From contig CAVXGK010000002.1 in the NCBI GenBank assembly GCA_963761305.1, positions 2,656,001 to 2,720,000 of the forward strand: a DNA stretch of 64,000 nucleotides, in the 5' to 3' direction. Both the position numbers and the translations under genes were made by a program. Origin of the DNA: an uncultured Gemmatimonadaceae bacterium (GTDB taxonomy: Bacteria > Gemmatimonadota > Gemmatimonadetes > Gemmatimonadales > Gemmatimonadaceae). A model generated the notes under the pieces. The model saw nothing but the letters and a program-made list of their open reading frames with translations. It made no database searches and was not told the origin of the DNA. Position 1 is the stretch's first letter. Every line of letters starts with the position of its first letter. This document shows positions 43,662 through 64,000 of the stretch, one piece after another.

Positions 43662-44072
43662 ATGCACCGATCGATCGGGTTGGTCGCGCTGGTTGTCCGA
43701 GACTACGACGAGGCGATCGCCTTCTATGTAGGGGTGCTCGGCTTCTCCGTGGTCGAAGACCGGCCGGTCCCCGAACAGAACAAGCGGTGGGTCGTGGTCG
43801 CTCCGCCGGGCGCGACGGAATCGCGCCTGCTGTTGGCCCGCGCCGTCGGCCCGGAGCAATCGTCGCGCATCGGCAACCAGACAGGCGGACGGGTCTTTCT
43901 CTTCCTCCGCACCGACGATTTCTGGCGCGACTTTCACGCGTACGAGGCGAACGGCGTGATATTCGTCAGGTCGCCGAAGGAAGAGAGCTATGGAACGGTG
44001 GCCGTCTTTCAGGACCTGTACGGCAACCTGTGGGACCTGGTTCAGATGAAAGCCGAGAGGTCTGACGTCTGA
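43662..44072 (+). CDS. VOC/glyoxalase family protein
   Basis: VALVVRDYDEAIAFY, KRWVVVAP, GNQTGGRVFLFL, YGTVAVFQDLYGNLWDL. Confidence 0.92.
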   Translation: MHRSIGLVALVVRDYDEAIAFYVGVLGFSVVEDRPVPEQNKRWVVVAPPGATESRLLLARAVGPEQSSRIGNQTGGRVFLFLRTDDFWRDFHAYEANGVIFVRSPKEESYGTVAVFQDLYGNLWDLVQMKAERSDV

Positions 44073-44098
44073 AGTCAGATATCTGACGTCAGATGTCT
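44061..44098. repeat. Heptamer repeat TCTGACG/TCAGATG
   Basis: tctgacg tctgaag tcagata tctgacg tcagatg tct; contains the VOC stop codon. Confidence 0.8.
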
Positions 44099-50100: not shown

Positions 50101-50229
50101 GGTCGAGGCCCGGCCGTCGACCTCGGCCACGACGACCGCGATCGGCCCGTGTCCCTTCCGGCCAGCCTCGGCCACCGCCGCCCTCGCGGCAGCGTCGAGC
50201 TCGTTTGCGTCCAAAAAGAGGTGCGACAT
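47161..50229 (-). CDS. Degenerate GGDEF + STAND-like AAA ATPase + TPR protein
   Basis: N-terminal GGDEF-like fold (SLRGGDLVGRVGG...LSVGAA), FAGRGQEF, GAAGTGTAT, LVLDEMQWAD, TEGNPLFI, FTHD, multiple TPR-like repeats. Confidence 0.8.
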   Translation of the reverse strand: MSHLFLDANELDAAARAAVAEAGRKGHGPIAVVVAEVDGRASTPPGTADWQPAEEAEYADVLNTAVAKMIGASLRGGDLVGRVGGRVVMVLANTTADDGRAVGDRLCAAIRVHRFANGFGARTLSVGAAAAPDHGQSYEAVLDAAVDALARIQAQGRDGAAAMPLAHHDALRRPLSIDRFAGRGQEFASLTQWLDEANGGQPRVVSVSGAAGTGTATLLQQLESEARLRGGLFAVVASPKRQLPKPYGVWRALLRATHVFQPSPEREWAELQHLEPALGESLAVPRTGSQFRLLGELTDYVRSLASGRPLVLVLDEMQWADSTSWDALEHLIGQLDRDRIMICMTYRTDGPNDAGWMRRVTSRPELTRQITIANLTRDEVKQWLEAAFHRQQVGRELLAFIYRHTEGNPLFIGHLLRALVEDGSIWHNGTRWEWTPVSELRISAGRTALIAHRLERFSASTHAVLWTAAVVGREFDVHLLVGAGAGSELAVRLALSEAASAGLLRPTRERKRGSFAFTHDDVAEVLIDGLPKQQQRQLHLRVAQALEKLRPDSADDIALHYDAAGESADAYRWGQLAAKAAERVHAFGAASAYLQLAARNATSPGELAEIRVALAHVSETGGRFDEVEELCDLAIEWFDGQGDERRSLTLRRLRERARMELGQPALVTLEALKVLEAEAKRLGFDHESVAVLLMMSQTYGRLGDRRTSERIAAEGVAMAEQVGDTLLLADAVTRLGGAMFSEAPNRAYSILERALSLYESVGDARGQARTYSNMGIMAQFESRLDAAFEAYTRGMTVGRAGGMPDMWGLAALNLGVLSQRCGDYDRARDLFGEALGLFVAVKHSEYQLAALFNMAHVEREVGRWESATQLYETTISLAQRIGQADIEAGAMAGAGLCALELGHADAALAAIQSLESRTKDRTDWYLGREVVEALQIRTDAGDGERRQHAVQRLARSVELAESTDVYCAAWLISACAETVGRIDRPRVTELVRAYAVRVKKLGYPEMTRRFDALESSRERPQP

Positions 50230-50410
50230 TCCTTTACTTCGCCGTTGGGAGGACCGATATGCGGGTTCACTACCGTAGGAAACGACCGCGAACCCCGCAA
50301 GATCTTTTTACGACGACATTTGCGGCCCTCCCGGGGCTCACGGGTATGGTTAACGAGGCAGGCCGGCGGGCGTCTACCTAGACGGCACCTTCGGTCATCG
50401 GAACCCTTCC

Positions 50411-52300
50411 ATGCGCCAACTCGCTTTCCTGACGTCCGCGCTCGTCTCCGCCGCGTGCAGCGCCCAGGCCCCGCGCCCGCAGGCGACGCCCGTCGCGCCG
50501 GCGTCGCAAACGCCGCTTCAGCCGTCGGCTTCTGCCGCCGCCCCGGTGATGCCCGGCGAGCTGCTGCCCGACGAACAAGTTCAGCAAGTTCTCAATCGCC
50601 TCACGTTCGGCGCCCGCCCCGGCGACGCCGAGAAGGTCCGCGCGATGGGCATCGACAAGTGGATCGATCTCCAGCTGAATCCGGATCGCATTTCGGATCC
50701 CGCGGGCGACGACATCATCAAGAACTACTCCGTCTTCTCGACGCCCACCGGCGACATCGTGGGGCAGTTCGAGGAGTTGCAGCGTTTGCAGCGGCAGGCC
50801 AAGCGCAACGCGAGCGACACGACGATGTCGAAGCCGGAAGAGCGGCAGGAAGTCCTTGCTCGGAATCCGCAGCTCGCGCAGGCCGCGCAGCGCAATCAGC
50901 AGATGGTCGGCCAGGTCCAATCGGCGCAGCTCGCCCGCGCGGTGACGAGCGAGCGGCAGCTCAACGAAGTGATGGTCGACTTCTGGGAAAACCATTTCAG
51001 CGTGTTCGCTGGCAAGGGGCAGACGCGTTTGTATCTCGCGCAGTACGATCGCGACGTGATCCGTCCGCACGCGATGGGAAAATTCCGCGATCTGCTCGGC
51101 GCGGTGGCGCACAGCCCGGCGATGCTCTTCTTCCTCGACAACTGGGAAAGCGCCGCCGACAGCGTTCATCCCACGCTCGCGCAGGCGCGCCGGCCGGCGT
51201 TTCGCCGCGGGGCGTTCGGCACGCTCATCCCGATTCGGCCCGGACCGCAACAGCAGCAGCGCGCCAAGCGCGGCTTGAACGAGAACTACGCGCGTGAGCT
51301 CATGGAGCTGCACACGCTCGGCGTCGACGGCGGCTACTCACAGAAGGACGTACAGGAAGTCGCGCGGGCGCTCACGGGATGGACGTTCAACCGCCAGAAT
51401 GGCGAGTTCGTCTTCAACCCGAACATTCACGACGCCGGCGAGAAGCTGATTCTCGGCCAGCGCTTCCCCGCCGGCCACGGCGAGGACGAAGGCGAGCGCG
51501 TGCTGGACATGGTGGCGCGCCATCCTTCCACGGCCCATTTCATCGTCACCAAGCTCGCGCGTCACTTCGTGAGCGACGATCCGCCGAAACCCCTCGTCGA
51601 CCGCTGCGCGAGTACGTTCACCAAGACTGACGGCGACATCCGCGAGACGCTGCGCTGCGTCGTCACGAGCCCCGAGTTCTTCAGCCGCGCGGCCTATCGC
51701 GCCAAGGTGAAGACGCCGTTCGAGGTCGTGGCCAGCGCGCTGCGCGCGGTCAATGCGAGTCCGGATGCATCGCCTCGCTCGGCGCAGATCGTCGCGCGGC
51801 TCGGCCAGCCGATCTTCGGCCGGCAGACGCCGGACGGTTGGCCCGATCGCGGCGACGCGTGGATGAACACCGGGGCGATCCTCAACCGTATCAACTTCGG
51901 TCTGAGTCTCGCGGCGGGTCAGGTTCCGGGTGCGCAGCTCGCGAACTGGACTGACTTCTCGACGCTTCGTAGCGAGCCGCGCACGCAGCAGGTGGATGCG
52001 GTCGTGAAGTCGATGTTGGGCGGACAGGTGTCGCCCGAGACGCGTCAGGTGCTGATGAGCGGTGAGAATCCGATGCTCGCGGCCAACGACGCGAACGGCA
52101 TGGTCGACAGCTCGTCCATGGATCCAGGCGGCGGACGCCGTGGCGGCCGCGGCGCTCAGCAGCAGCAGAAACCGGACGGCAAGGGATTCCCGCGCGGACC
52201 GGCGGCGCAGATCCCGGGCTTTGGACGGCCGGTGAACCTTCAGGGACTTCCGCAGGTAGTGGGTCTGGCGCTGGGCGCTCCCGAATTTCAACGACGGTGA
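50411..52300 (+). CDS. DUF1800 family lipoprotein
   Basis: SAAC lipobox; LNRLTFG, QLNEVMVDFWENHF, SPAMLFFLDN, NENYARELMELHTLG, HDAGEK, KVKTPFE, PEFQRR. Confidence 0.9.
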   Translation: MRQLAFLTSALVSAACSAQAPRPQATPVAPASQTPLQPSASAAAPVMPGELLPDEQVQQVLNRLTFGARPGDAEKVRAMGIDKWIDLQLNPDRISDPAGDDIIKNYSVFSTPTGDIVGQFEELQRLQRQAKRNASDTTMSKPEERQEVLARNPQLAQAAQRNQQMVGQVQSAQLARAVTSERQLNEVMVDFWENHFSVFAGKGQTRLYLAQYDRDVIRPHAMGKFRDLLGAVAHSPAMLFFLDNWESAADSVHPTLAQARRPAFRRGAFGTLIPIRPGPQQQQRAKRGLNENYARELMELHTLGVDGGYSQKDVQEVARALTGWTFNRQNGEFVFNPNIHDAGEKLILGQRFPAGHGEDEGERVLDMVARHPSTAHFIVTKLARHFVSDDPPKPLVDRCASTFTKTDGDIRETLRCVVTSPEFFSRAAYRAKVKTPFEVVASALRAVNASPDASPRSAQIVARLGQPIFGRQTPDGWPDRGDAWMNTGAILNRINFGLSLAAGQVPGAQLANWTDFSTLRSEPRTQQVDAVVKSMLGGQVSPETRQVLMSGENPMLAANDANGMVDSSSMDPGGGRRGGRGAQQQQKPDGKGFPRGPAAQIPGFGRPVNLQGLPQVVGLALGAPEFQRR

Positions 52301-52333
52301 GCCCGGCCGTAAATAGGACAAAGGGATAGCGAT

Positions 52334-53641
52334 ATGAATCGTCGAGTATTCATGAAGTCGGGCGCGATGGCGCTGGCCACGATGGGGCTCAACCCCACCT
52401 TCCTCCGCCGCACTGTGTTCGCGCAGGATCTGCTCAAAGGAGCGGCGCTCAAGGGGAACGGACGCGGCAAGGTGCTCGTCGTCCTCTTCCAGCGCGGCGC
52501 GGCCGACGCCCTGAACGTCGTCGTGCCGCACGGTGAGCGGAACTACTACGCGATGCGTCCGTCGATCGCGATTCCGCGGCCGGTCTCCGGCACGGCGAAC
52601 ACGGCGATCGATCTCGACGGATTCTTCGGGCTTCACCCGTCGCTCTCGCCGTTCAAGAAGCTGTGGGACGACGGGATCCTCGCGCCGGTTCACGCCGTCG
52701 GATCGCCGAGCAATTCGCGGTCGCACTTCGACGCGCAGGACTACATGGAAAGCGGCACGCCCGACAACAAGGGCACGCGCGACGGTTGGTTGAATCGCTA
52801 TCTCGCCGTGAAGGGCACCTGCGACGAATGCAAGTTGCACGACGCGAGCGGTGCGACGGCGACCGGCGCGAAGGCGGCGCCGTTCCAAGCCGTGTCGATG
52901 ACGCCGCAGACGCCGCGCATTCTCGAGGGCGACTCGCCGACGGTGGCGATGAACAGCATCGACGAGTTCACCATCCGAACCAACGGTACGCAAGCGGAAC
53001 GCATCGAGGCGCTCTATCGCACGGGCAACGCCGACGTCGTGCACGCCGCCGGCGGCGAGATGTTCGAGGCGATGAAGATCCTCAAGGCGGCGAACCCGCA
53101 GCAATACACCCCGGAGAATGCCGCCGACTACCCGCGGACACCGTTCGGCCAGCATCTGAAGCAGATCGCGCAGCTCATCAAGGCGGACGTGGGTCTCGAG
53201 ATCGCGTTCGCCGACGTCGGCGGCTGGGACACGCACGTGAATCAGGGCGGCGCGACTGGTCAGCTCGCGCAGCGCCTCGACGATTTCTCCAAGTCGATCG
53301 GGGCGATGGTGCAGGACCTCGGCAACCGCGTGGCCGACGTCACGATCCTCACGATGTCCGAGTTTGGCCGTACGGCGCGCCAGAACGGCAACGGTGGCAC
53401 CGACCACGGCCACGCGACGTCGATGTTCGTGATCGGCGGCGACGTGAAGGGCAAGAAGGTCCACGGCAAGTGGCCGGGCCTCGAACCCGAGCAGTTGAAC
53501 GAAGGCCGCGACCTCGCGCTGACGACCGACTTCCGGTCAGTCTTCTCGGAAGTGGCGTTCAAGCATCTCGGCGCCGCCAAGATGGACGCCGTGTTCCCGG
53601 GTTTCCACGGCGACGAGTCGAAGTGGGTCGGCGTGCTCTAG
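52334..53641 (+). CDS. DUF1501 family protein, Tat-exported
   Basis: MNRRVFMK twin-arginine signal; FQRGAADALN, RSHFDAQ, GWLNR, GGWDTH, SEFGRT, GTDHG, TTDFR. Confidence 0.9.
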   Translation: MNRRVFMKSGAMALATMGLNPTFLRRTVFAQDLLKGAALKGNGRGKVLVVLFQRGAADALNVVVPHGERNYYAMRPSIAIPRPVSGTANTAIDLDGFFGLHPSLSPFKKLWDDGILAPVHAVGSPSNSRSHFDAQDYMESGTPDNKGTRDGWLNRYLAVKGTCDECKLHDASGATATGAKAAPFQAVSMTPQTPRILEGDSPTVAMNSIDEFTIRTNGTQAERIEALYRTGNADVVHAAGGEMFEAMKILKAANPQQYTPENAADYPRTPFGQHLKQIAQLIKADVGLEIAFADVGGWDTHVNQGGATGQLAQRLDDFSKSIGAMVQDLGNRVADVTILTMSEFGRTARQNGNGGTDHGHATSMFVIGGDVKGKKVHGKWPGLEPEQLNEGRDLALTTDFRSVFSEVAFKHLGAAKMDAVFPGFHGDESKWVGVL

Positions 53642-53666
53642 CCGCAGAAGCCTAGTGGTGCTCGAA

Positions 53667-53710
53667 AAATCGGACGTCTGATATCTGACATCAGACGTCC
53701 GATTTCTCTT
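53667..53710. terminator. Heptamer-built palindrome at the junction of two convergent operons
   Basis: AAATCGGACGTCTGAT-ATCTGAC-ATCAGACGTCCGATTT, flanked by A- and T-rich runs. Confidence 0.75.
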
Positions 53711-56380
53711 TCAGCTCTGCGGCTTCCACCCGGTGAATACGTTCATCCAGCTGCGCACAACGCGTGGCAAAAAGCGCTGTGGCCGCACGCGATCGATCAT
53801 CGCGTAGAACGAGATGCGATCCACGAGGAGCTCACAGAGCGCGGCCCTGAATCCGGCGTCCCACTCCTCTTGGTAGAGGTCGACGCTGCCGGCCGACGCG
53901 AGCAGCGATCGGTAGCGCTCCACCCACGACGCGATCGTTTCGCCGGACGCGTTCGGCGGCAGCACGAACACGAGGAACTCGGCGAGGTCGCGCTGCGGCG
54001 CGCCGATCGTCGCCAGCTCCCAATCGAACGCGCACAGATGGAGTCCGGTCGCGCCACGCCGAAGCGCCACGTTGCGCGGATTGAAATCGTTGTGAAGCAG
54101 CGTGCGCGGCGACGCGTCGAGCACGTTCGCCCACGAGGCGATGTCGCTCACCAATCGCGCGTGGATGCGTCGGAGCGCCGGATCGCGGAATGCCGTCGAC
54201 CGCTCGTGGGCGTGCTCGGCCAGCGCGCGCCAGAGAGGCGCCATCGCGACGTACTTCACCGAATCGCGGCGCGGCGGCAGCCACGATGTGGTCGCCAGCG
54301 ATTCGTCGCCGAGTCCGACCGCGTGAATGTCTGCCAGGCCGGTGAGCGCCGCGTCGATCGCGGCGGCGTTCCAGCGCGCCGGATCGTTGGCGTTGATCAG
54401 CACGGCGTCGTCGATCCGCTCGAGGGCAATCAGCCATCGACGTCGGGCGTCGTCGCGCTCGATGAGTATCGGACGCGGCGTGTGCGAACGAAGGCGCGGA
54501 TCGCGAAGCGCGTAGACCGCCAGCTCGCGCACCTGCGAGCGCGTGATGCCGAGGTCGTCTCTGAATTTCGTGACGGACTCGCCCAATGCAGGCGAGACGA
54601 GGCCCGCGAGCGCTACCGCCACGTCGACCGAGTGCGTGTCGGCCGCCTTGGATTTCACGAACAGGCGCGCATCGCGACTCGCACCATGCTCGTCATGGAC
54701 GGAGACCACGGCGTCGAACAAGCCGGCCTGCGTTCCCTCCCCCGCCCGCCACGCCGTCAACTCGGCGACGATGCTCTCGTCGCTGGCGATCGGCGTCAAG
54801 TCCACTCGGTCGAGGTACAGCGGACCGGCACCGAGCCAATCACTCAGCCCGGCGGCCAGCGCATCGCTCGGCTCGAGGAGCGGACGTCGTTCCTTTCGAG
54901 CGGGACAAGCCACCGCGGCGCCAATATCCGGCACGATGCCCTGACGAACGAAATCGTCGAAGTACCGTGATAGAAGGTGCGAGTCTACGTCGCCGACGCG
55001 CACGCCGAGCGCGTCGAGCGCACGCAGTGACACGGCGCCGTTCACGCTCGACCGCCGCGACTCTTCGAGCAGCTCGGGCAGCGTGAGCGCGTTCTCCGCC
55101 GCAATGCGTCGGAGAAAGAACGATCGCAGCGGGAACAACGGATTGTTCGCGTCGGCCGTCGCTTTCAGCCGCTCCGCCCACTCGGCGTACGGCAGTAATG
55201 CGACGTCGTAGCCGCGCAGGCGCATCCAGAGCGCGCACTCGCGCCAGTGCCGCGGCCGCGCGGCGATCACGTGATGAACGCTCGAGCCCACGTCGTGCGC
55301 GAGTGCAAGCCGCACGATCGCCCGCGCCGCGTCGTCCACCGGCACGCAGTCCATTCGCCAATCGAGATCGGGAGCGGCGCGCATGCCAATGCATCCGGCG
55401 ATGAACCGCGACGTGAGGTCGTCCACGTTCGACCGTCCGCGCGCGTCGCCACTGATGAGCGACGGCCGCACGATCGTCACCGGAAGCCCGCGCGCGCCAG
55501 CTTCGCGCACCAGCGCTTCGGCCACGCATTTACTCTGGGCGTAACCGAGCCACAGTCCGTGTACGCTGTCGAAGACGTCGGTGCGCTCGTCGACGCTCCG
55601 CCGGTTCGACGTGGAGTGGCAGACGCTGGTGCTCGACACGAAGTGCAGCGGCTTGGGCGTGCCCACGCACGCGAGCCGCAGCAACTCGCGCGTGCCGAGC
55701 ACGTTCGCGTCGCGCAGGCGTTCGTACGAGTGCACCCAATTGACGTCGGCCGCCGCATGGTAGATGGCTTCGATCTCGGCGGCCAACGCCGAAAACGCGC
55801 CCGCGTCGCGACCCAAGCGCGGCCGGGAAAGATCGCCGTCCACGACGCGAATGCGGTCCACGTCCGCGTCGTGCCAGAGCCCGTACGCGGTCAGGTTGCG
55901 ACGCACGCGCGCGAATCCATCGCCGCGCCCCGCTCGAACCAGACAATGCACCGTTGCCGTCGTTTCGTCGAGCAACGTGCGCAAGAGATACGCGCCGAGG
56001 AAACCCGTCGCCCCGGTGAGCAGCACGCGGCGTGCGGCGCGAGTGGGGGGCGCGATGCCGCGAGGCGCGATCTCGGGCGGCAGCGCGGCATCGACGCGCA
56101 TCTGTCTGATTTGTCGCTCGCGAGCACCGTCGGTGTTTCCGTCCTCGATGAAGCGGCACAGCGAATCGATATCCGGATGTTCGTGCACGGCGGTGAGCGG
56201 CAGCTCGATTCCCAGGTCGTCCTCGATCGCCGCGGTGAGCTCGACCGCGGCCAACGAATCCATTCCGAGCGAGGCGAACGTGTCGAACGGTCCGACGCGG
56301 GCGACACTCACGCGGAGTGTCGCGCCGACGACCGCCGCCAGGCGATCGCGAAGCCCCTCGCGAGTCGCGACGCTCGTCAC
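53711..56380 (-). CDS. Fusion of acyl carrier protein, thioester reductase (extended SDR) and APH/choline-kinase-like phosphotransferase
   Basis: FASLGMDSLAAVEL (phosphopantetheine Ser); LLTGATGFLG, YHAAA, GYAQSK, RPSLISG; C-terminal LLHNDFNPRN...FDWE. Confidence 0.88.
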   Translation of the reverse strand: MTSVATREGLRDRLAAVVGATLRVSVARVGPFDTFASLGMDSLAAVELTAAIEDDLGIELPLTAVHEHPDIDSLCRFIEDGNTDGARERQIRQMRVDAALPPEIAPRGIAPPTRAARRVLLTGATGFLGAYLLRTLLDETTATVHCLVRAGRGDGFARVRRNLTAYGLWHDADVDRIRVVDGDLSRPRLGRDAGAFSALAAEIEAIYHAAADVNWVHSYERLRDANVLGTRELLRLACVGTPKPLHFVSSTSVCHSTSNRRSVDERTDVFDSVHGLWLGYAQSKCVAEALVREAGARGLPVTIVRPSLISGDARGRSNVDDLTSRFIAGCIGMRAAPDLDWRMDCVPVDDAARAIVRLALAHDVGSSVHHVIAARPRHWRECALWMRLRGYDVALLPYAEWAERLKATADANNPLFPLRSFFLRRIAAENALTLPELLEESRRSSVNGAVSLRALDALGVRVGDVDSHLLSRYFDDFVRQGIVPDIGAAVACPARKERRPLLEPSDALAAGLSDWLGAGPLYLDRVDLTPIASDESIVAELTAWRAGEGTQAGLFDAVVSVHDEHGASRDARLFVKSKAADTHSVDVAVALAGLVSPALGESVTKFRDDLGITRSQVRELAVYALRDPRLRSHTPRPILIERDDARRRWLIALERIDDAVLINANDPARWNAAAIDAALTGLADIHAVGLGDESLATTSWLPPRRDSVKYVAMAPLWRALAEHAHERSTAFRDPALRRIHARLVSDIASWANVLDASPRTLLHNDFNPRNVALRRGATGLHLCAFDWELATIGAPQRDLAEFLVFVLPPNASGETIASWVERYRSLLASAGSVDLYQEEWDAGFRAALCELLVDRISFYAMIDRVRPQRFLPRVVRSWMNVFTGWKPQS

Positions 56381-58170
56381 GTGCCGGTGCCGAGTGCGAC
56401 GGCGAATTCGGGATCCGCCACCCAGCGCGCCACTTCGTCGAGCGAGCGGTCACCGAATGCGTCGCGACACGCACGGCGGCGCAGCTTCCCGCTCGACGTC
56501 TTCGGCATCGTGCCGTGACGGAGCACGCTCACGGCCGAGAGCACGATGCCGTGGTGATCGACGACCGCCTCGCGCACACGTTGGATCAGTTCAGCCAGGA
56601 ACGCGTCGCAGATGGCGGTATCGTCGAGCTCCGGTGCGTGCCGGCGGTCGACTTCCACGGCAAGGGCCACTGCTTCGCCGCCTTCGCCGTCGATCGAAAA
56701 CGCAGCCGAGCATCCGGGCCTGATCGCCGCGTGCTGTCGCTCGGCGGTGCGCTCGACGTCCTGCGGGTAGTGCTTGAAGCCGCGCACGATGAGCACGTCT
56801 TTCAAGCGCCCCGCGATGAACAGCTCTCCGTCGTGCAGCGCGCCCAAGTCGCCCGTACGCAGGAACGGACCTTCACCGCCGGCGAGGCGCGCCTGGAACG
56901 TCTCTCGCGTCTCGTCGTCACGACGCCAGTAGCCGCGCGCCACGCTCGGCGACTCGACCCAGATCTCTCCGATGCGCCCGTCGGCGCATCGGAGACGCGT
57001 GTGCGGATCGACGATCAGCGCTCGTGTCCCGAACGACACCGGACCGCTCGACACGAGCGGACGCGTGCCCGAGTTCGACGCGCGCGCGATGCGGAGCCGG
57101 CCGCGCGTCAGGGCATCGGTGGAGACGTCGTGAATCACTGGCTCGTAGTGGCGCCCGCCGGTGGAGACGAGCAGCGTGGACTCGGCGAGGCCGTACACGG
57201 GATAGAACGAGCGCCATTCGAAGCCAACGCCTTGGAATCGCGCGTGAAACGCTTCGAGCGTCTCGGCGCGGATCGGTTCGGCGCCGTTGTACGCGGTGCG
57301 CCACGAGCTGAGATCCAGCGCGTCGCGTTGCGCGTCGGTGACTTTGCGAACGCAGAGATCGTAGGCGAAGTTCGGCCCGCCGCTCGTCGAAGCGCGATAA
57401 CGCGTGATCGCGCGCAGCCACCGAATCGGCCGGTGGAGGAACGACGCCGGCGCCATGAGAAATGCCGGATAGCCGCCGAAGATCGGACCGAGCACGCCCT
57501 CGATGAGTCCCATGTCATGAATCACCGGGAGCCACGACACGGATCGCGTCGAGCGGTCGCGGTCCGCGGCGCTGCTGGCGTAGGCGAGGTTGTGGAGCAG
57601 GTTCGCGTGCGACACCATGACGCCGCGCGGCGACGCCGTCGAGCCGGACGTGTACTGAAGAAACGCGAGATCGTGCGTGTCGATCGGCACGTCGTGCCAC
57701 TCGCCCGTGTCATGCTCGAACAGCGTGTCGGTGGCGAGCCACGGAATCGAGGCGAGCGCCGGCGCGTCGATCGACATGCGCGTCGCGGCGTCGGCGACGC
57801 TCGCGTTGGCGAGAACGATCGCGACGTCGGCGTCGGCGACGATGCTCAGCAAGCGCGGCAGCGTGCGCGACGCCTGTGACGGTTGCGGCGGATACGCCGG
57901 CACGGCGATCACGCCCGCGTACAGGCAGCCGAAGAACGCGGGGATGAAGTCGAGCCCGGGCGGATACAGCAGCAGGGCTCGATCGCCCGGGCTGACGCCG
58001 CGCTCGCGCAGCGCGCGGGCCACGCTTCGTGCGCGCTCGTCCAACTCGGCGTACGTGAGACGCGGACCTTCGCGCTCGCCGTCGATGAGGAACGTGAAAG
58101 CGGTGTCGCCTCCCTGCTCCGCCGCGCGGGATGCGAGCAGATCGACGAGCGTCGAATGCGGCGCGCTCAT
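56377..58170 (-). CDS. Fatty acyl-AMP ligase (FAAL)
   Basis: FLQYTSGSTASPRGV, WLPVIHDMGLI, GGPNFAY, YGLAESTL followed by a FAAL-type insertion, LRTGDLG, PKTSSGKLRR. Confidence 0.92.
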   Translation of the reverse strand: MSAPHSTLVDLLASRAAEQGGDTAFTFLIDGEREGPRLTYAELDERARSVARALRERGVSPGDRALLLYPPGLDFIPAFFGCLYAGVIAVPAYPPQPSQASRTLPRLLSIVADADVAIVLANASVADAATRMSIDAPALASIPWLATDTLFEHDTGEWHDVPIDTHDLAFLQYTSGSTASPRGVMVSHANLLHNLAYASSAADRDRSTRSVSWLPVIHDMGLIEGVLGPIFGGYPAFLMAPASFLHRPIRWLRAITRYRASTSGGPNFAYDLCVRKVTDAQRDALDLSSWRTAYNGAEPIRAETLEAFHARFQGVGFEWRSFYPVYGLAESTLLVSTGGRHYEPVIHDVSTDALTRGRLRIARASNSGTRPLVSSGPVSFGTRALIVDPHTRLRCADGRIGEIWVESPSVARGYWRRDDETRETFQARLAGGEGPFLRTGDLGALHDGELFIAGRLKDVLIVRGFKHYPQDVERTAERQHAAIRPGCSAAFSIDGEGGEAVALAVEVDRRHAPELDDTAICDAFLAELIQRVREAVVDHHGIVLSAVSVLRHGTMPKTSSGKLRRRACRDAFGDRSLDEVARWVADPEFAVALGTGT

Positions 58171-58961
58171 ACGAGCACCTCGACGGGAGCGGACGAAGGG
58201 AGCACGTCGATGGTGAGCGAGTCCGGCAGTCGGCCGGTGGATCGCATCGACTCGTGGACGCGAACGAACAGGTCGTGCACGGCGTCGCGGTTGCGTTCCA
58301 GGTCGGCGACGACCCAGTAGCTCGTATCGATCGGCGGGAGAAAGTAGACGTCGATCATACCAGGTTTGGCGTCGTATCCCATACCGGGGTTCATCTCGTT
58401 CGGGATCGCGAAGTAGATGGGCACGATCCGCGCGTGGAGACTCGTGGCGAGATGGAACGAGCCTTTGTTGAAGTGCCCGATCTCGCCGGTGGTGATGCGC
58501 ATGCCCTCGGGACTCAGATACACCGAGTCACCCGTCTCGCGAAGAATGCGGTCGGCGCGCTTGAAGATCTCGACACGCTTCGTCGGATATTCCTGCGGCA
58601 CGGTCCAGAAGATCCGGATGAGCGTGCCGATGATTCCCGTCGGCGGCATCCACTTGAGGAAGCCGCTGAGGAAGAACCGCGTGCGCGGCAGTCCCAGCGC
58701 GATCAGGACGAAGAGATCGAGCGTCGACGTGTGGTTCGAGACGTAGATCGTCTGGATGTTCGCGGGCTGCGGGGCGCCGTGCACGCGATAGCGCACGCCC
58801 CAGATGCGAAGCGCGGCTTCGCCCAACCAGCGCGCCATGACCTCGGAGTAGAATCGGCGCGCCAGAGAACACGTCGGGATCGCGACGATCAGCATGGCGA
58901 TCGCGCCGAACGTGAGGAAGATGAACGTCGCCGCGAGACGAACACGCATGCCGGAGCTCAT
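58167..58961 (-). CDS. PlsC-like lysophospholipid acyltransferase
   Basis: NHTSTLD (HxxxxD), SPEGMR, FNKGSF, IVPI; N-terminal membrane anchor. Confidence 0.9.
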   Translation of the reverse strand: MSSGMRVRLAATFIFLTFGAIAMLIVAIPTCSLARRFYSEVMARWLGEAALRIWGVRYRVHGAPQPANIQTIYVSNHTSTLDLFVLIALGLPRTRFFLSGFLKWMPPTGIIGTLIRIFWTVPQEYPTKRVEIFKRADRILRETGDSVYLSPEGMRITTGEIGHFNKGSFHLATSLHARIVPIYFAIPNEMNPGMGYDAKPGMIDVYFLPPIDTSYWVVADLERNRDAVHDLFVRVHESMRSTGRLPDSLTIDVLPSSAPVEVLV

Positions 58962-59944
58962 ACGCGTCTCCGGCAGATCACGGTCTGCATCGCGAAGTTG
59001 AGCTGCTTCTCGAACGCCAGCACGGGCGAGAACAGGATCTGGCCCAGGAAGTACGGGTAGATCGCGCGCGAGAGGTTGAGCCCTTTGCCGCGGAGCAGCT
59101 TGAAAGCCGCGCCGGCAAAGATGTAGAAAAAGGCCGGGAACGCGCCGTACGGCAGATAATCCACCACCTCGAGGCCCGCCTTGTCCATCGCCAACAGGAA
59201 TGTCGTGCGGTCGTAGAGTACCGTGTGCTGCGGCGCCTGTAGTCCGGGCCACCGATCGCCGTAAAGGCGGAACGTGGTGCTATCGAGCCTCGGCACCTCA
59301 ATGATCAGGCGGCCGTCGGGCTTCAACAGACGGCGCGCCGTGGCCAGCGTGCGCATCGGATCGTAATCGTGCTCGAGGAAGTGCCACATCGTCACGAGGT
59401 CGAAGGGCTTCTCGCCGAACTCCTGCTCGTAGAAGAGTCCACAACGAAAATCGACGCCGTCGAGCGACGGGCTCGCGCTCAGATCCTTGAAGTCCACCCC
59501 GGTCGCGCGCGCGCCGTAGCGCGAGCGCATCTTCTGGAGGAACGTGCCGACCGCGCAGCCGACGTCGAGGACGTCGCTGTGCGAGTCGAGCGCGACGTAC
59601 CGGCTGACGATCTTGTCCTTCTGCCGGTCGTGCCGGTCCATCGCCCAATTGAAGAAACCGGTGAGCACGCCCCAATCCTTCTTCTTGCGGTGCGCGATGT
59701 ACTCGTCGTCGTAGTATGACTTGATGTGCTCGACGGTGAGCCGCGGGTTCTGGTAGCGCAGGCCGCAGCGCGCGCACGTGACGAAGGTGAATCGTCCCGG
59801 TTTGCCGCTGAGATCGTCTTGGGCGGTGATGAAGGGTGAGGACTCGGAGCCGCCGCACAGATAACAGCACACGGTCTCGAACTGGCTGGCGACGGGCGCC
59901 TCGAGCGCGCGCGACGTGTCGGGCGGAATGGCAATCGCGGTCAT
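58958..59944 (-). CDS. Class I SAM-dependent methyltransferase with N-terminal Zn-ribbon
   Basis: CYLC...CARC...QNPR; VLDVGCAVG; FDLVTMWHFLEH; LKPDG..IIEVP. Confidence 0.9.
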   Translation of the reverse strand: MTAIAIPPDTSRALEAPVASQFETVCCYLCGGSESSPFITAQDDLSGKPGRFTFVTCARCGLRYQNPRLTVEHIKSYYDDEYIAHRKKKDWGVLTGFFNWAMDRHDRQKDKIVSRYVALDSHSDVLDVGCAVGTFLQKMRSRYGARATGVDFKDLSASPSLDGVDFRCGLFYEQEFGEKPFDLVTMWHFLEHDYDPMRTLATARRLLKPDGRLIIEVPRLDSTTFRLYGDRWPGLQAPQHTVLYDRTTFLLAMDKAGLEVVDYLPYGAFPAFFYIFAGAAFKLLRGKGLNLSRAIYPYFLGQILFSPVLAFEKQLNFAMQTVICRRRV

Positions 59945-60603
59945 GGGAGCTTCCCTCCGAGAAGGGTTGCGGTAGCGATGAGCATGGACACGAGCGCGCA
60001 TTCCGAGATCGCGATCCGGCGCGCGACCAGAGACGCACGGAGCGAAGGATCGTCGACGACCTCGTAGACGCAGAGAACGAGGTACAGCGCCGCGAGCGCG
60101 GCGAGCGGCGGCGCCGCCGGCGATACGGCGAAGGCCAGCGCCGGGTACTTGAGCAGCACGATGTGGCCATTGATCACGCCGCGTGTGACGACGGGTCGAA
60201 GCCGGTACCACGCGCCGAGAACGGCGACGGCCCCACCGACCACCCCGAGCCGTGCCGCGGCGCGCGGTCCAAGCGCGATGAGCGCCAACCCTGCCACGGC
60301 GAGGGCGATCGCCACCGCAATCAGCGGCGCGATCGACTCCGCGACGACCGTAACCCGGTTCGGATGCTCGCGCGCATCTCTCGAGCGATCCTCGATGTCG
60401 TCCCAGACGCGGAACGCGAGCATCAAAACGAGTCCCGTCACGGTCGCGCGCGCGAACTCGCTCACCGAGCGGCCGCCGTTCCACCCGTTCACCTGTCCAC
60501 CCGTCCACCCGTCCACCGCCGCCACAACCAGCGCCAGCGGCACGAACACGCGCAGCCGCGCGCGCTCGGCGAGGTATCGTACGATCAGCTCACGCGACGA
60601 CAT
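59941..60603 (-). CDS. UbiA-superfamily (prenyltransferase-like) membrane protein, short form
   Basis: Aspartate-rich RVWDDIEDRSRDAREHPNR motif, LLKYP, YEVVDD; several TM helices. Confidence 0.72.
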   Translation of the reverse strand: MSSRELIVRYLAERARLRVFVPLALVVAAVDGWTGGQVNGWNGGRSVSEFARATVTGLVLMLAFRVWDDIEDRSRDAREHPNRVTVVAESIAPLIAVAIALAVAGLALIALGPRAAARLGVVGGAVAVLGAWYRLRPVVTRGVINGHIVLLKYPALAFAVSPAAPPLAALAALYLVLCVYEVVDDPSLRASLVARRIAISECALVSMLIATATLLGGKLP

Positions 60604-63232
60604 GCACCTCTCCGCGATCGCCGTCCACCGTGACCGTCGTGCCGGATGGAATGCGCACCATGGCGTTCTTCACGCCCACCACGCACGGAATGCCGAACTC
60701 CCGGGCGATGATCGCGCCGTGCGACAACATCCCACCGCGCTCGATGACCAGTCCGGAAATGAGGAAGAACGCCGGCCCCCATCCGGGATCCGTCTGCTTG
60801 GTGACGAGCACGTCACCGCGCGCGAGGAGCGCCGTCTGCGTCACACTGTCGAGCACCGTCGCACGTCCGGTGACACGTCCGCCGCACGCGCTCGTCCCCG
60901 TCAACACACCGCTCGAAGTCGCCGCCGCCGATGTTTGCCAGTCCACCGGTCCATCGGTCCGCCGGTCCGCCGGCATTTCCAAGTACTCGCCTTCAGGCAG
61001 CGTGAACGAATCGGGCGGATTCGTCGCCGAGAGTCGCGCGTGATCGGTCTTGCGCGTAGCGATCAACGTGCGAGTCGCGCCGGGGAACATCGCGCTGCCG
61101 CCAGTCAGCTCGAGCAGCTCCTGCCACGTCAGGAAGAACACGTCGTCACGCTCGGCGATCGTTCCGCGGCGCGTCAGCTCGGTGCCGATCGCAAGAGCGA
61201 TTCGCCGGCACCGGCTGTAGAGCAGCGCCTGTTTGAGCCGCGCGCGTTCGCGATATCGAATCGCGGCGTGCACGCGCGGCACGAGAAGCTCGAGCAGCAT
61301 GGCGCGGGCCGTCGTGAGACGCTCGCCGACGCGCCCCGTCTCCTCCTCTCGCGCAGCAGCCTGCGCACGCAACGCATCGCGCGGCGAGTCTGCGTCGAGC
61401 CTGGCATAGGCGCGGAGCACGTCGATCAGCGGCGCCGGATCCTCCTGGAAGCTCGGCGTCGTGAGCATCAGCTCTTCGGAGCACCGAAAGCCCCAATCAT
61501 CCAGGTACCGCTGAAACGCCACGCGGAACTCGGCGTAGAGCGCGTCGACGCGAATTGCGTTCAACACCGCGTTCGGGTCCGCGTTCTCGAACAACGCGTT
61601 CAACGCGCCGTCGCGACGCACCAGTCGAGAGAGATCCCACAGTCGCAGCACCGGCTCACCGCTCACCACGTTCGGAATCGCCTTGAGCAGCGACGTGTGC
61701 GTCGCTTCGCCGAGTCCGGCGCCGCGCAGCAGGCGCTCGAGCGCGCCATAGCTGATCATCGCCGCGCCGTCGGCGAGTGAGGCATCGAGCCATTTGTGGC
61801 ACCGAATGTCGATGAAGCCGGCCAGCGTGTCGCGTAGCTCGGCAAGCGACATCGTGTCCAGAAGTGAGGGTTGTGTGCGCGCCGCGAACTCGTCCACCGA
61901 GCGCTCGAACCGCGCCACGCGACGCTCGAGCTGGACGAGAAGCGCCGTCGCTTTCGCCAGGATCACGGACACTTCGGCGATCTGCCGGACCTTGCTGCGG
62001 CGAGCAACCGGATTCGGCTCGACCTCGTTACCGTCGGCGCCGACGAACGTGTCGAAGCTCCGCGTCAGCGCGCTGCCGAAAGGTGCGAGGCGAAGCACCG
62101 AATGAATCGCCGAGAGATTGTAGTATATCCGGGCGCCGTGCACGCCGATGATGCGCTGGAACTCTGACTCCATCGCGCGCACTCGGGCGGCCGAGACGCC
62201 GCAGGCGACGGCGAGGTTGCGGAAGTAGTGCGTGTATCCCGCCGCGGCGATCGAGTACAGCAGCGGCGAAATCGGCCGCGGAAAATTCTCGTTGACGTTC
62301 GCGTTCGACCACGTGATGAGTCGTCGCGGTGACGCGACGCTCGCCGGCGGCATCGACACCGGCGCGGTGATCGGCCGCGACTGCACGACGTAGAGCGCGC
62401 CGCTCTGATCGATCGCCCATTCGACGTCCTGCGGCGCGCCGAACTCCCCTTCGAGTGCAAGGCCGGCGGCTCTGAGCTGCTCGGTCTCGCGATCACTCAG
62501 CGAACACGCAACGTGTCGATCGAGATGACGAGCCGTGCCACTCCGGCGATCGAGCGCCAGGCGGCCGGGATCCACAGCGCCGGCGACGAGCTTGTCGGCG
62601 AGACCCGGTCCGTACTCGACGAGGATCTCCCCGCTCGACGTCGTCGTGAACGACACGCCTGCTGCCCGCGCGTCGACCTGCCGCTGAATCACCACGCCCA
62701 TGCCACGCATCGGCGCGCCGCGCGCCCTCCTATAGAAGGCCGCGCGCTCCGACCACAGCGAGGCCCACACGTCGCGCACGGCTTGCTCGAGCATCGCCTG
62801 GTCGGTCACGTGCAGAATCGAGTCGAGTTGGCCGGCAAACGACTCGGCCGCTCCATCTTCCCCCACCGCCGAGCTTCGCACGACCACGGGGCCACGGGCG
62901 AGGAACGGCGCCGCATAGATCGCCAGCTGTTCTCGCAGCGTTCGGGGCAAGGCCGCGGTTCGCACGAACGACGGCCAGTCGGATGTGACGGCGCCGGCCG
63001 ACGCAACGTGAGCGTCGAGCGCGTGCACGGTGAGCACGAAGCCCTCCGGCACCGGCAATCCCGCACGCAGCATTCGGCCGAGTGCGTACGCTTTGCCACC
63101 GACGAGACTCGGATCGGCCGCCGCTACGAGCGGAGCGCAGAAAATGTTCGTGGACTCGGCCAACACGGTCGCCGGATCAGCGACGATCGGCGATGCGTCC
63201 GGCGGAGTGAGCGAGACTTCGACGGTCGTCAT
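60590..63232 (-). CDS. PEP-utilising/dikinase family phosphotransferase (rifampin phosphotransferase / PigC-like architecture)
   Basis: N-terminal ATP-grasp (VGGKA, VRSSAVGED, SFAGQ, QDVEWA, VQSRPIT), large central domain, C-terminal phospho-His swivel domain GGMLSHGAIIAREFGIP. Confidence 0.92.
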   Translation of the reverse strand: MTTVEVSLTPPDASPIVADPATVLAESTNIFCAPLVAAADPSLVGGKAYALGRMLRAGLPVPEGFVLTVHALDAHVASAGAVTSDWPSFVRTAALPRTLREQLAIYAAPFLARGPVVVRSSAVGEDGAAESFAGQLDSILHVTDQAMLEQAVRDVWASLWSERAAFYRRARGAPMRGMGVVIQRQVDARAAGVSFTTTSSGEILVEYGPGLADKLVAGAVDPGRLALDRRSGTARHLDRHVACSLSDRETEQLRAAGLALEGEFGAPQDVEWAIDQSGALYVVQSRPITAPVSMPPASVASPRRLITWSNANVNENFPRPISPLLYSIAAAGYTHYFRNLAVACGVSAARVRAMESEFQRIIGVHGARIYYNLSAIHSVLRLAPFGSALTRSFDTFVGADGNEVEPNPVARRSKVRQIAEVSVILAKATALLVQLERRVARFERSVDEFAARTQPSLLDTMSLAELRDTLAGFIDIRCHKWLDASLADGAAMISYGALERLLRGAGLGEATHTSLLKAIPNVVSGEPVLRLWDLSRLVRRDGALNALFENADPNAVLNAIRVDALYAEFRVAFQRYLDDWGFRCSEELMLTTPSFQEDPAPLIDVLRAYARLDADSPRDALRAQAAAREEETGRVGERLTTARAMLLELLVPRVHAAIRYRERARLKQALLYSRCRRIALAIGTELTRRGTIAERDDVFFLTWQELLELTGGSAMFPGATRTLIATRKTDHARLSATNPPDSFTLPEGEYLEMPADRRTDGPVDWQTSAAATSSGVLTGTSACGGRVTGRATVLDSVTQTALLARGDVLVTKQTDPGWGPAFFLISGLVIERGGMLSHGAIIAREFGIPCVVGVKNAMVRIPSGTTVTVDGDRGEVHVVA

Positions 63233-63813
63233 GCCGGTCGCGCCTTCACGCCGATCCGGTACAGCAGCACGCTGAACGCCAAGTGAATTCCCGGTCCGAT
63301 CACCAGCACGTACAGCCACAGCATCCATGGCGTCGGCACGACCAGTGACATCGCGATGAGCATTCCGAGGATGGAATCGACGCGATCGACGATGAACGTC
63401 ACCGCCGCGCCTACGCGGCCTGGCGCCGCCATCCCGGGCGCGACGTCGAACTGCCGTTTGACGAACGAATTCGGCAACTCACCGAGCATGAACCCAAGCC
63501 CGGCGACCGCGCCGAGGATCGCGTAGCCCGATGCGTCGAGTCGCCAGAGCTCACCGGCGATCGATGGCGAAACGCGTGAGACGATCGCGTGAAGCGCCGC
63601 GAACGCCGCCGCCGCCGCGGGAACCATCACGACAAACCCCCGCACCGTCTTGTTCTCGCCGAAAAGTCGCTTGCCGCGAACGTGCGCGCCGCCGTCGAGC
63701 GGCACGAGCAGACGTCGCGATGCCGGCATGCGAAGCCACGCGGAGTGCGCGAGCCCGGCGAGGATGAACGCGACCGTGAGAAACAGCGCGCACGCGAGCG
63801 GATCGAGAGTCAT
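63229..63813 (-). CDS. CDP-archaeol synthase (CarS)-like cytidylyltransferase
   Basis: PLDGG...GKRLFGENKTVRG, GELPNSFVKRQ and DRVDS correspond to the CarS-family motifs; multiple TM helices. Confidence 0.8.
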   Translation of the reverse strand: MTLDPLACALFLTVAFILAGLAHSAWLRMPASRRLLVPLDGGAHVRGKRLFGENKTVRGFVVMVPAAAAAFAALHAIVSRVSPSIAGELWRLDASGYAILGAVAGLGFMLGELPNSFVKRQFDVAPGMAAPGRVGAAVTFIVDRVDSILGMLIAMSLVVPTPWMLWLYVLVIGPGIHLAFSVLLYRIGVKARPA

Positions 63814-63821
63814 GTCGCGGC

Positions 63822-64000
63822 TCAGATGTCCGCGCCGGTCTCGAGGCGGTTGTGAAAGAGAAACAGCTCGCCTCGGAGCCCGCGTGCGCCCCGAATCCAC
63901 GCCCACAATCCGATCTCGTTTTCGGTTTCGTACCGCACCTCGCCGAGTCGATAGCCGGGCACGTAGGGGTACATGTGATGCAGTTCGTGCGCGTCTATGT
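63822..64000 (-). CDS. Membrane fatty-acid desaturase family protein, C-terminal fragment (5' end outside the window)
   Basis: Manual translation IDAHELHHMYPYVPGYRL...GADI* contains the third histidine box. Not in the supplied ORF track. Confidence 0.75.
   Translation of the reverse strand, partial: IDAHELHHMYPYVPGYRLGEVRYETENEIGLWAWIRGARGLRGELFLFHNRLETGADI

Follow-up and report, generated by a model that had tools for sequence, protein, structure and literature searches.

In nonribosomal peptide synthetases (NRPS), polyketide synthases (PKS) and carboxylic acid reductases, a carrier domain is followed by a thioester reductase of the short-chain dehydrogenase/reductase (SDR) type, as in the terminal reductase (R) domains of MxaA (4u7w) and MxcG. 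The ACAD10/ACAD11 and LvaA kinases, in turn, combine an APH fold and a DWE motif with an acyl-thioester oxidoreductase and phosphorylate a hydroxyl group on a lipid chain: 4-hydroxyacyl-CoA in the case of ACAD10/11 and LvaA (PMC12440821) and 1-O-alkylglycerol in the case of ACAD10 kinases (bioRxiv 10.1101/2025.09.10.675409). Here we describe a gene related to both, found in a 64,000-nucleotide stretch of DNA (the window) from an uncultured Gemmatimonadaceae bacterium (GCA_963761305.1, contig CAVXGK010000002.1, positions 2,656,001 to 2,720,000). The gene (53711..56380, minus strand) is a single open reading frame of 889 amino acids that joins an acyl carrier protein (ACP), an SDR-type thioester reductase and an APH/choline-kinase-fold kinase. 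An earlier sequence-only reading had proposed that this protein could reduce an acyl chain and phosphorylate the resulting alcohol, giving an alkyl phosphate for a CarS-like or dikinase enzyme of the same operon. The fusion is real, conserved and apparently undescribed, and the comparisons reported below make it probable that it would convert a fatty acid, by way of the alcohol, to an alkyl phosphate.

The ACP occupies residues 12-78 (56147..56347, minus strand; PF00550, E 2e-14), with its phosphopantetheine serine, Ser42 (codon 56255-56257), in a GMDS motif at residues 39-42. The reductase (residues 119-481; 54938..56026, minus strand) matches the thioester reductase model TIGR01746 with 299 bits against a cut-off of 213, and PF07993 with E 7e-61; beyond the score and the upstream carrier domain, it has the Rossmann GxxGxxG (TGATGFLG, 122-129) and the S/T-Y-K triad of that family (S249/S250, with Y280 and K284 in YAQSK, 280-284). 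Its best solved match is the R domain of MxaA (4u7w, E 4e-78), which we take to be alcohol-releasing. The kinase (approximately residues 501-889; 53714..54880, minus strand) matches PF01636 (APH) over residues 618-824 (E 9e-12; 45.7 bits against a cut-off of 23.2) and PF02958 (EcKL, E 2e-6), and its key residues lie in LFVKSK (573-578; K576, K578), VRELA (617-621; E619), HNDFNPRN (763-770; H763, D765, N770) and D786-W787-E788. In an alignment of the fusion protein with 37 of its best 120 homologues (38 sequences), S42, the Rossmann motif (T122-G129), S249/S250, Y280, K284 and all of these kinase residues are invariant; across 140 sequences the kinase H, D, N, D, W and E remain invariant, and K, K and E are conserved at 90% or more. 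The three domains that the sequence-only reading placed in one open reading frame are therefore all present, as is each motif it named. It was also right that the HxDxxxxN...DWE motif is intact, but not that the protein ends there, as about 100 residues precede the C-terminus.

A structure model of residues 501-889, built from a 140-row alignment, reached a pLDDT of 96.2 and a pTM of 0.94. Fold matches to this model span the whole kinase domain and are all enzymes of the APH/choline-kinase family, at 9-14% identity, led by corramycin phosphotransferase (8agy; Z 18.5, root-mean-square deviation 4.0, 288 aligned) and including homoserine kinase and ethanolamine kinase (2ppq, 2qg7; Z 17.7). The bilobed protein-kinase-like fold comes with the beta-3 Lys, alpha-C Glu, HxDxxxxN and DxE of these families. 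The earlier reading would have failed had the C-terminal region not been a kinase; on the strength of the model and its matches, its APH/choline-kinase fold can be regarded as settled. A phmmer search of the PDB with the kinase domain alone returned nothing below E 0.09.

The fused arrangement is the norm among relatives. A search with the kinase region gave 579 homologues among 8000 scored candidates, and 104 of the best 120 are at least 850 amino acids long; these long proteins carry the ACP motif G-x-[DS]-S (104), DWE (104), HxDxxxxN (103), TG[AS]TGF (102) and YxxxK (101). The other 16 are shorter, and the nine of them that were inspected resemble fragments. A scan of GTDB genomes produced 408 pattern matches, 306 of them confirmed, from which the best 80 loci were kept, a sample that covers the outer edge and the stand-alone members of the family thinly. 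A reductase match is present in 76 of these loci, and in 72 of the 76 the reductase tail and the kinase head share a frame; the four frame breaks (L009, L024, L048, L059) all occur in metagenome-assembled genomes of one series and are read as indel errors. Of the four loci that have no reductase match, L010 and L057 lie at contig edges, L078 is a lone kinase and L079 carries another kind of N-terminus. A genome of the same genus (G131) has an open frame of 919 amino acids. The concern that homologues might always be separate genes is answered by these counts, and the full-length homologues and in-frame loci rule out an assembly accident or frameshift artefact. Two loci (L075, L081) go further, with FAAL (fatty acyl-AMP ligase), ACP, reductase and kinase in one chain, as checked with Pfam. 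Four-domain single proteins of about 1400-1550 amino acids are found at L075:6560-11230, L080:6944-11173 and L081:2-4168. Separately, a 362-residue protein on record is identical to the C-terminal part of the window fusion; it may come from a different assembly in which the gene was split or called too short.

The fusion ends a run of eight closely spaced or overlapping genes, in the order desaturase, CarS-like, RPH/PigC-type dikinase, UbiA-like, zinc-ribbon methyltransferase, PlsC-type acyltransferase, FAAL and fusion. Some relatives of this operon have a different reductase. In L079 the same kinase family stands behind an HMG-CoA reductase (HMGR) fold; its kinase region gave 956 protein matches, with PF00368 in all 120 of the best listed, and a metagenome scan confirmed at least 583 loci of this HMGR type, 80 of which were analysed. 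Of those 80, the 26 that are 15 kb or longer encode a dikinase (25), a UbiA-like protein (21), an acyl ligase (20), a GNAT-like protein (20) and CarS (16). In L156 and L161, six companions of the window operon surround the HMGR-type fusion, FAAL and the ACP-thioester reductase are absent, and the fusion occupies the place of the window's FAAL and ACP-reductase-kinase; identity to the window proteins is 52-56% for the methyltransferase, 33-38% for the desaturase, 32-35% for the dikinase, 28-32% for the acyltransferase, 26-28% for CarS and 24-27% for the UbiA-like protein. L134 has the same companion set. In a midpoint-rooted FastTree phylogeny of 142 of 146 kinase domains (four too short or unmatched were dropped), the HMGR-type and thioester reductase (TR)-type kinases are split by one branch with a support of 100, and the nearest relatives of the window fusion are from Gemmatimonadaceae; as this tree is drawn from two separately sampled best-80 sets, its root is not inferred and no direction is claimed for the swap.

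The active site of the HMGR-type sisters points to fatty acyl reduction. Among 189 sequences the catalytic Glu is present in 184 (the other five have gaps) and the catalytic Lys, Asp and His in 189 each, whereas the position of Ser684 is Glu or Asp and that of Leu862 is Phe in all 189, and Lys735 is gone in 188 and present once. Catalytic residues kept, Ser684 acidic, Lys735 lost and Leu862 bulky are together the signature of FcrA, an HMGR-related fatty acyl-CoA reductase (Grossi et al. 2025, PMC11948995), judged against PMC11948995 and PMC9500038; the residue of the HMGR carboxylate salt bridge is Lys735 in the latter and is written Lys795 in the former. A reading of these sisters in terms of mevalonate kinase was rejected, the pocket for the HMG carboxylate being altered. 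The same kinase, in the same gene company, is thus preceded by either of two acyl-thioester-reducing folds that are unrelated to each other, and the simplest chemistry shared by both arrangements would be a fatty alcohol passed to the kinase. We infer such a hand-over chiefly from this swap, which is the strongest evidence for it. Together with the kinase fold and the fused homologues, the FcrA signature lends indirect support to the earlier proposal of acyl reduction and alcohol phosphorylation in one polypeptide.

FcrA is described in PMC11948995 as often serving pathways beyond wax esters, with ether lipids suggested; the main text of that paper does not contain the words 'kinase', 'phosphotransferase' or 'UbiA', and its Fig. 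4B, on fused domains, may draw an HMGR-kinase architecture. Several HMGR-type fusions adjoin thymidylate-kinase-like genes (L082:12012-16921, L106:9959-15541, L105 and L158), accompanied by a GH3-family ligase in L082 and L106 and by a nucleotidyltransferase in L105 and L158; a kinase of the nucleoside monophosphate type would suit a step from monophosphate to diphosphate. A sister operon also occurs in cultured organisms, Brevibacillus laterosporus B9 (L163:9734-21119) and a plasmid of Roseinatronobacter sp. S2 (L164:1-8507), where it encodes HMGR-like, UbiA, dikinase, DUF3419, GNAT-like and acyl ligase proteins and a membrane protein of 439 amino acids, with no APH kinase. The motifs of the membrane protein are presumably those of phytol/dolichol kinases (VTE5/SEC59), an identification confirmed by no library: it has no Pfam, NCBIfam or PDB match, and hhalign gives 0.6% against a CdsA-like protein. 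Replacement of the APH kinase by a VTE5/SEC59-type kinase in these two operons is unproven.

The TR-type operon is found in several phyla. In the 59 TR-type loci whose upstream flank measures 9.1 kb or more, the reductase, dikinase, acyltransferase and methyltransferase are each found in all 59, CarS in 57, FAAL in 56, the desaturase in 52 (often clipped by the 10-kb flank), the divergent UbiA-like protein in 51 (at a threshold of 1e-5) and a CDP-alcohol phosphotransferase in 41. FAAL lies directly upstream of the fusion in 56 of the 59, and the gene order does not vary among the loci and recurs in Gemmatimonadota, Acidobacteriota, Planctomycetota, Pseudomonadota and Nitrospinota. Within its own phylum the operon is patchy, occurring in three of 301 sampled genomes. 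Transposase-like insertions break the operon around the FAAL gene in L027 and L032. In two further loci the gene immediately after the kinase is of the radical SAM kind: a planctomycetotal one (L058:6406-9385, where it is followed by GNAT and another acyl ligase) and a deltaproteobacterial one (L078:2951-4186).

In the proposed pathway, the neighbouring FAAL would likely load a fatty acid onto the ACP of the fusion, the reductase would likely spend two NADPH to bring the acyl group to a primary alcohol, and the kinase would likely use ATP to form the alkyl phosphate, the predicted entry step of a membrane-lipid operon. The RPH-like dikinase would then place a second phosphate on the alkyl phosphate, and the UbiA-like protein would transfer the alkyl chain to a hydroxyl of the glycerol-phosphate type, as an ether. 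The acyltransferase would contribute an acyl chain, and the head group would come from the CarS-like enzyme, together with a PssA-like protein in operons that have one. More speculatively, the double bond in allylic position that UbiA enzymes normally require may come from the desaturase. The pathway is consistent with the three conserved active sites, the adjacency or fusion of FAAL and the retention of the first Asp motif of the UbiA-like protein and of the dikinase His. The downstream steps from diphosphate to ether, acylation and CarS head group are put forward tentatively and with less confidence than those performed by the fusion.

The fate of the kinase product can be narrowed by comparing head-group genes. 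Among the 80 HMGR-type loci, 28 encode CarS, 17 encode DUF3419 (BtaA-like), none encodes both and 35, many of them short, encode neither, while dikinase and UbiA-like genes accompany CarS and DUF3419 alike. On the kinase tree the CarS/DUF3419 state changes four times (with 40 of the 65 rows carrying a label), and three of these changes are required by branches of good support, so that kinship inflates the counts, yet the exclusion reflects more than one event. CarS (with PssA-like) and BtaA are read as alternative head-group modules on a scaffold made by a constant core. Because these modules alternate and the dikinase and UbiA-like protein do not, the kinase product is unlikely to be dedicated to CarS, and the alkyl phosphate probably does not pass directly to the CarS-like enzyme. 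Since UbiA enzymes need a diphosphate donor and the core has two phosphotransferases, a course from alkyl phosphate through alkyl diphosphate to the ether is tentatively favoured. Of the two consumers first proposed, the dikinase is thus favoured and the CarS-like enzyme weakened; the UbiA-like protein acting after the dikinase is an addition to that proposal.

An unlikely alternative, which concerns only the downstream route and shares the three steps of the fusion, is that the alkyl phosphate passes directly to the CarS-like enzyme, giving first a CDP-alkanol and then a phosphodiester, or that it takes the acceptor's place in the UbiA-like reaction, with neither diphosphate nor ether formed. 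Decaprenyl phosphate is the acceptor for DPPR synthase, and the UbiA-like protein is atypically short; such a route would avoid an unreactive saturated alkyl diphosphate and would agree with the frequency of CarS and CDP-alcohol phosphotransferase genes in TR-type loci. However, the DUF3419 operons dispense with CarS and keep the dikinase and UbiA-like protein, and the dikinase would be left with no role.

It is rather unlikely that the kinase acts later in the pathway, in the manner of ACAD10, on an intermediate of the alkylglycerol or monoacylglycerol type, so that the fusion would reflect a shared pathway and not a direct hand-over of alcohol. ACAD11 is the best solved sequence match of the kinase profile (E 6e-7 over about 80 positions), the ACAD10 kinases that phosphorylate 1-O-alkylglycerol bear the DWE motif, and a product of the lyso-PA type would suit both the acyltransferase and the CarS-like enzyme. 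BtaA, however, needs a free hydroxyl group, and phosphorylation of glycerol would work against it in the 17 HMGR-type loci that have DUF3419/BtaA and no CarS; the kinase also remains fused behind two unrelated reductases.

A hydroxylated fatty acid as substrate is improbable, whether with a mid-chain hydroxyl phosphorylated on the tethered thioester, as by LvaA and ACAD11 on 4-hydroxyacyl-CoA, or with an alkanediol phosphate backbone in place of glycerol phosphate. The desaturase-family gene could encode a hydroxylase, and for the acyl ligase of the HMGR-type operons PRK09274 is the top-scoring model, ahead of the OleC beta-lactone synthetase models. The HMGR-type partners also keep the equivalents of Arg590 and Asp690, but these residues lie in the catalytic cis-loop region and need not imply a hydroxylated substrate, and the FcrA signature indicates plain long-chain acyl groups. 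Very improbable, finally, is a bioactive lipid-like product against which the kinase and RPH-like enzyme act as self-protection phosphotransferases: corramycin phosphotransferase heads the fold matches, the dikinase resembles rifamycin phosphotransferase models, the operon is patchy and a Streptomyces HMGR-type fusion (L082) lies among secondary-metabolite genes, but the top fold match ties with housekeeping kinases, the acyltransferase, CarS-like and PssA-like proteins are membrane-lipid enzymes, and no conserved transporter was found downstream of the TR-type operons.

Several observations weigh against the conversion of fatty acid to alkyl phosphate and ether that we prefer. Sequence does not tell two-electron from four-electron reductase domains. 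The leading fold matches of the kinase are tied at Z 17-18.5 among antibiotic, homoserine and choline/ethanolamine kinases and point to no substrate, and the ACAD10/ACAD11 family, to which the best solved sequence match belongs, acts on hydroxyacyl-CoA and alkylglycerol (PMC12440821; bioRxiv 10.1101/2025.09.10.675409) and not on free fatty alcohol. The operon FAAL gene is missing in L037, L044, L055 and L070, and in L044 and L070 there is no ACP match either, so that these probably use acyl-CoA. L078 has the kinase with no upstream reductase. The chief objection to the diphosphate-ether route lies in its chemistry: for UbiA enzymes the known diphosphate donors are of the allylic or anomeric kind, and one with a saturated alkyl chain would be a poor donor. 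A match to this type of desaturase occurs in only three of the 80 HMGR-type loci. The UbiA-like protein itself is short (220 amino acids) and scores under the Pfam cut-off, its second acidic motif is degenerate, and the window operon has no PssA-like ninth gene, present in 41 of the 59 related loci.

The individual operon genes, all on the minus strand, are as follows from the fusion outwards. The fusion itself starts with GTG and overlaps the FAAL stop by 4 nt. The FAAL gene (56377..58170; 597 amino acids) finds its top NCBIfam matches in FAAL models, with 346-444 bits (under their mycobacterial cut-offs) versus 160 for the best general CoA-ligase model, and is identified as FAAL by these scores and the adjoining ACP. 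Next outwards come a PlsC/LPLAT-type acyltransferase (58167..58961; 264 amino acids; PF01553) with conserved HxxxxD and EG motifs, and a class I SAM methyltransferase (58958..59944; 328 amino acids; PF13489) whose N-terminal CxxC...CxxC has its four Cys 95-100% conserved in 65 sequences. The short UbiA-superfamily membrane protein (59941..60603) matches PF01040 weakly and keeps the first motif RxxDDxxDxxxDxxxHxxR in its alignment; its family profile has DGGGP synthase (6m31, E 3e-6) as best solved match, and UbiA clusters of the ESM Atlas are further evidence for its assignment. The RPH/PigC-type phosphoenolpyruvate-utilising dikinase (60590..63232) likely starts at 63232, with an ATGA overlap, the longest open reading frame starting at 63328; it keeps the phospho-His and the RE motif and matches 5hv2 (E 2e-62), which we take to be the Listeria rifampin phosphotransferase. 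A CarS-like (DUF46) cytidylyltransferase (63229..63813; 194 amino acids; PF01864, E 8e-13; 5guf, E 0.005) is preceded by the first gene of the operon, a membrane fatty-acid desaturase/hydroxylase (PF00487, E 4e-23) with three conserved His boxes, of which the window contains the 3' end (63822..64000), the gene running on to window-equivalent 65000.

Elsewhere in the genome there are four CDP-alcohol phosphotransferases and two matches to phosphopantetheinyl transferase (PPTase); a second cluster, on the other contig (G000:C1, about 715200-722700), combines an adenylation enzyme with an ACP-like region and one such match, and could supply the PPTase. Between the fusion stop and a convergent DUF1501 gene lies a 21-bp hairpin (53664..53708), a likely terminator, with a folding energy of -33.8 kcal/mol (z -9.5; none of 200 shuffles as good). 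A degenerate copy occurs near 44064 (about 44050-44095), after a glyoxalase-like gene, and the 11-base core has nine occurrences in the genome, so the element may be a small dispersed palindrome and not a terminator only. Further downstream (47161-53641), a GGDEF-like/AAA/TPR gene, DUF1800 and DUF1501 are kept in the nearest Gemmatimonadaceae relatives only and are probably an insertion neighbourhood outside the pathway. In PADLOC the fusion and the dikinase had no match, and the methyltransferase had one partial match (mad2, E 2e-8), taken as generic. A search of sequencing runs matched six DNA runs, with at most 10% of words, and no RNA run among the matches listed, a result silent on expression.

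If the proposed activity is correct, a single polypeptide would convert a fatty acid to an alkyl phosphate, a reaction pair found in no paper searched, and would open a lipid pathway of uncultured bacteria from soils and sediments. Through the reductase swap, families that are annotated apart, as 'thioester reductase' and 'HMG-CoA reductase', become linked, and the frequent occurrence in bacteria of HMGR look-alikes that end in a kinase would have a possible explanation. Where some bacterial ether lipids in soils come from is an open question, for which this operon would be a concrete candidate. Whether it represents a fourth route to ether lipids, in which a fatty alcohol receives the activation typical of prenyl groups, is transferred by a UbiA-family enzyme to a glycerol-phosphate backbone and is finished by an archaeal-like CarS, is doubtful but conceivable; the chain would then possibly be allylic or methyl-branched through the desaturase and methyltransferase. 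Equally doubtful is the broader view that many bacterial phyla share a counterpart of archaeal lipid assembly based on fatty acids, with swappable reductase (SDR or HMGR) and head-group (CDP or BtaA) modules.

Among described systems, phytol salvage has the proposed pathway logic, in which VTE5 and VTE6 take an alcohol to the phosphate and diphosphate for UbiA, as proposed for this operon. Archaeal ether-lipid synthesis is similar in that the best solved matches of the UbiA-like and CarS-like proteins are DGGGP synthase and CarS, although both homologues fall under NCBIfam or Pfam family cut-offs and the chain would here derive from a fatty acid: none of the eight operon genes encodes a GGGP synthase or a geranylgeranyl diphosphate (GGPP) supply, and in the rest of the genome, which is 93% complete and was searched for HMGR only, HMGR was not found. 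Myxobacterial ElbD, as described in PMC11948995, likewise unites an acyl ligase, an ACP, an alcohol-forming reductase and a PlsC-like domain for alkyl lipids, but has no kinase, whereas the window operon adds a kinase, dikinase, UbiA-like and CarS-like proteins, a methyltransferase and a desaturase. With FcrA (PMC11948995) the fusion would share the four-electron reduction of a fatty acyl thioester, judging by the residue changes in the sisters of its kinase, but the window reductase is an unrelated, ACP-dependent SDR fold. The ACAD10/ACAD11 and LvaA kinases resemble the fusion kinase in the features given at the outset, but the similarity is remote (3dxp, 13% identity) and no close kinship was found: a solved bacterial ACAD-type homologue has a beta-3 Arg and an HYDxK loop where the fusion kinase has Lys and HNDFN (HNDFNPRN in full), and the ACAD partner is a dehydrogenase, not an N-terminally placed reductase. 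The terminal R domains share the carrier-reductase order and motifs, and L075 and L081 even have the full adenylation-carrier-reductase order of carboxylic acid reductases, but the fusion reductase is internal, not C-terminal in an NRPS/PKS assembly line, being followed by the 389-residue kinase in an operon with no condensation or ketosynthase module, and the fusion scores far under the cut-offs of whole-protein models for MxcG, Lys2 and carboxylic acid reductase. No description of the fusion or operon was found in the literature, searched at abstract level with subscription papers mostly outside coverage. Each of its domains belongs to a known superfamily; what this locus adds is the ACP-reductase form, the link to FAAL and the swap between two reductases. 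The fusion would act as an MxaA-type reductase coupled to a kinase of lipid alcohols, an arrangement that lies outside every characterised system.

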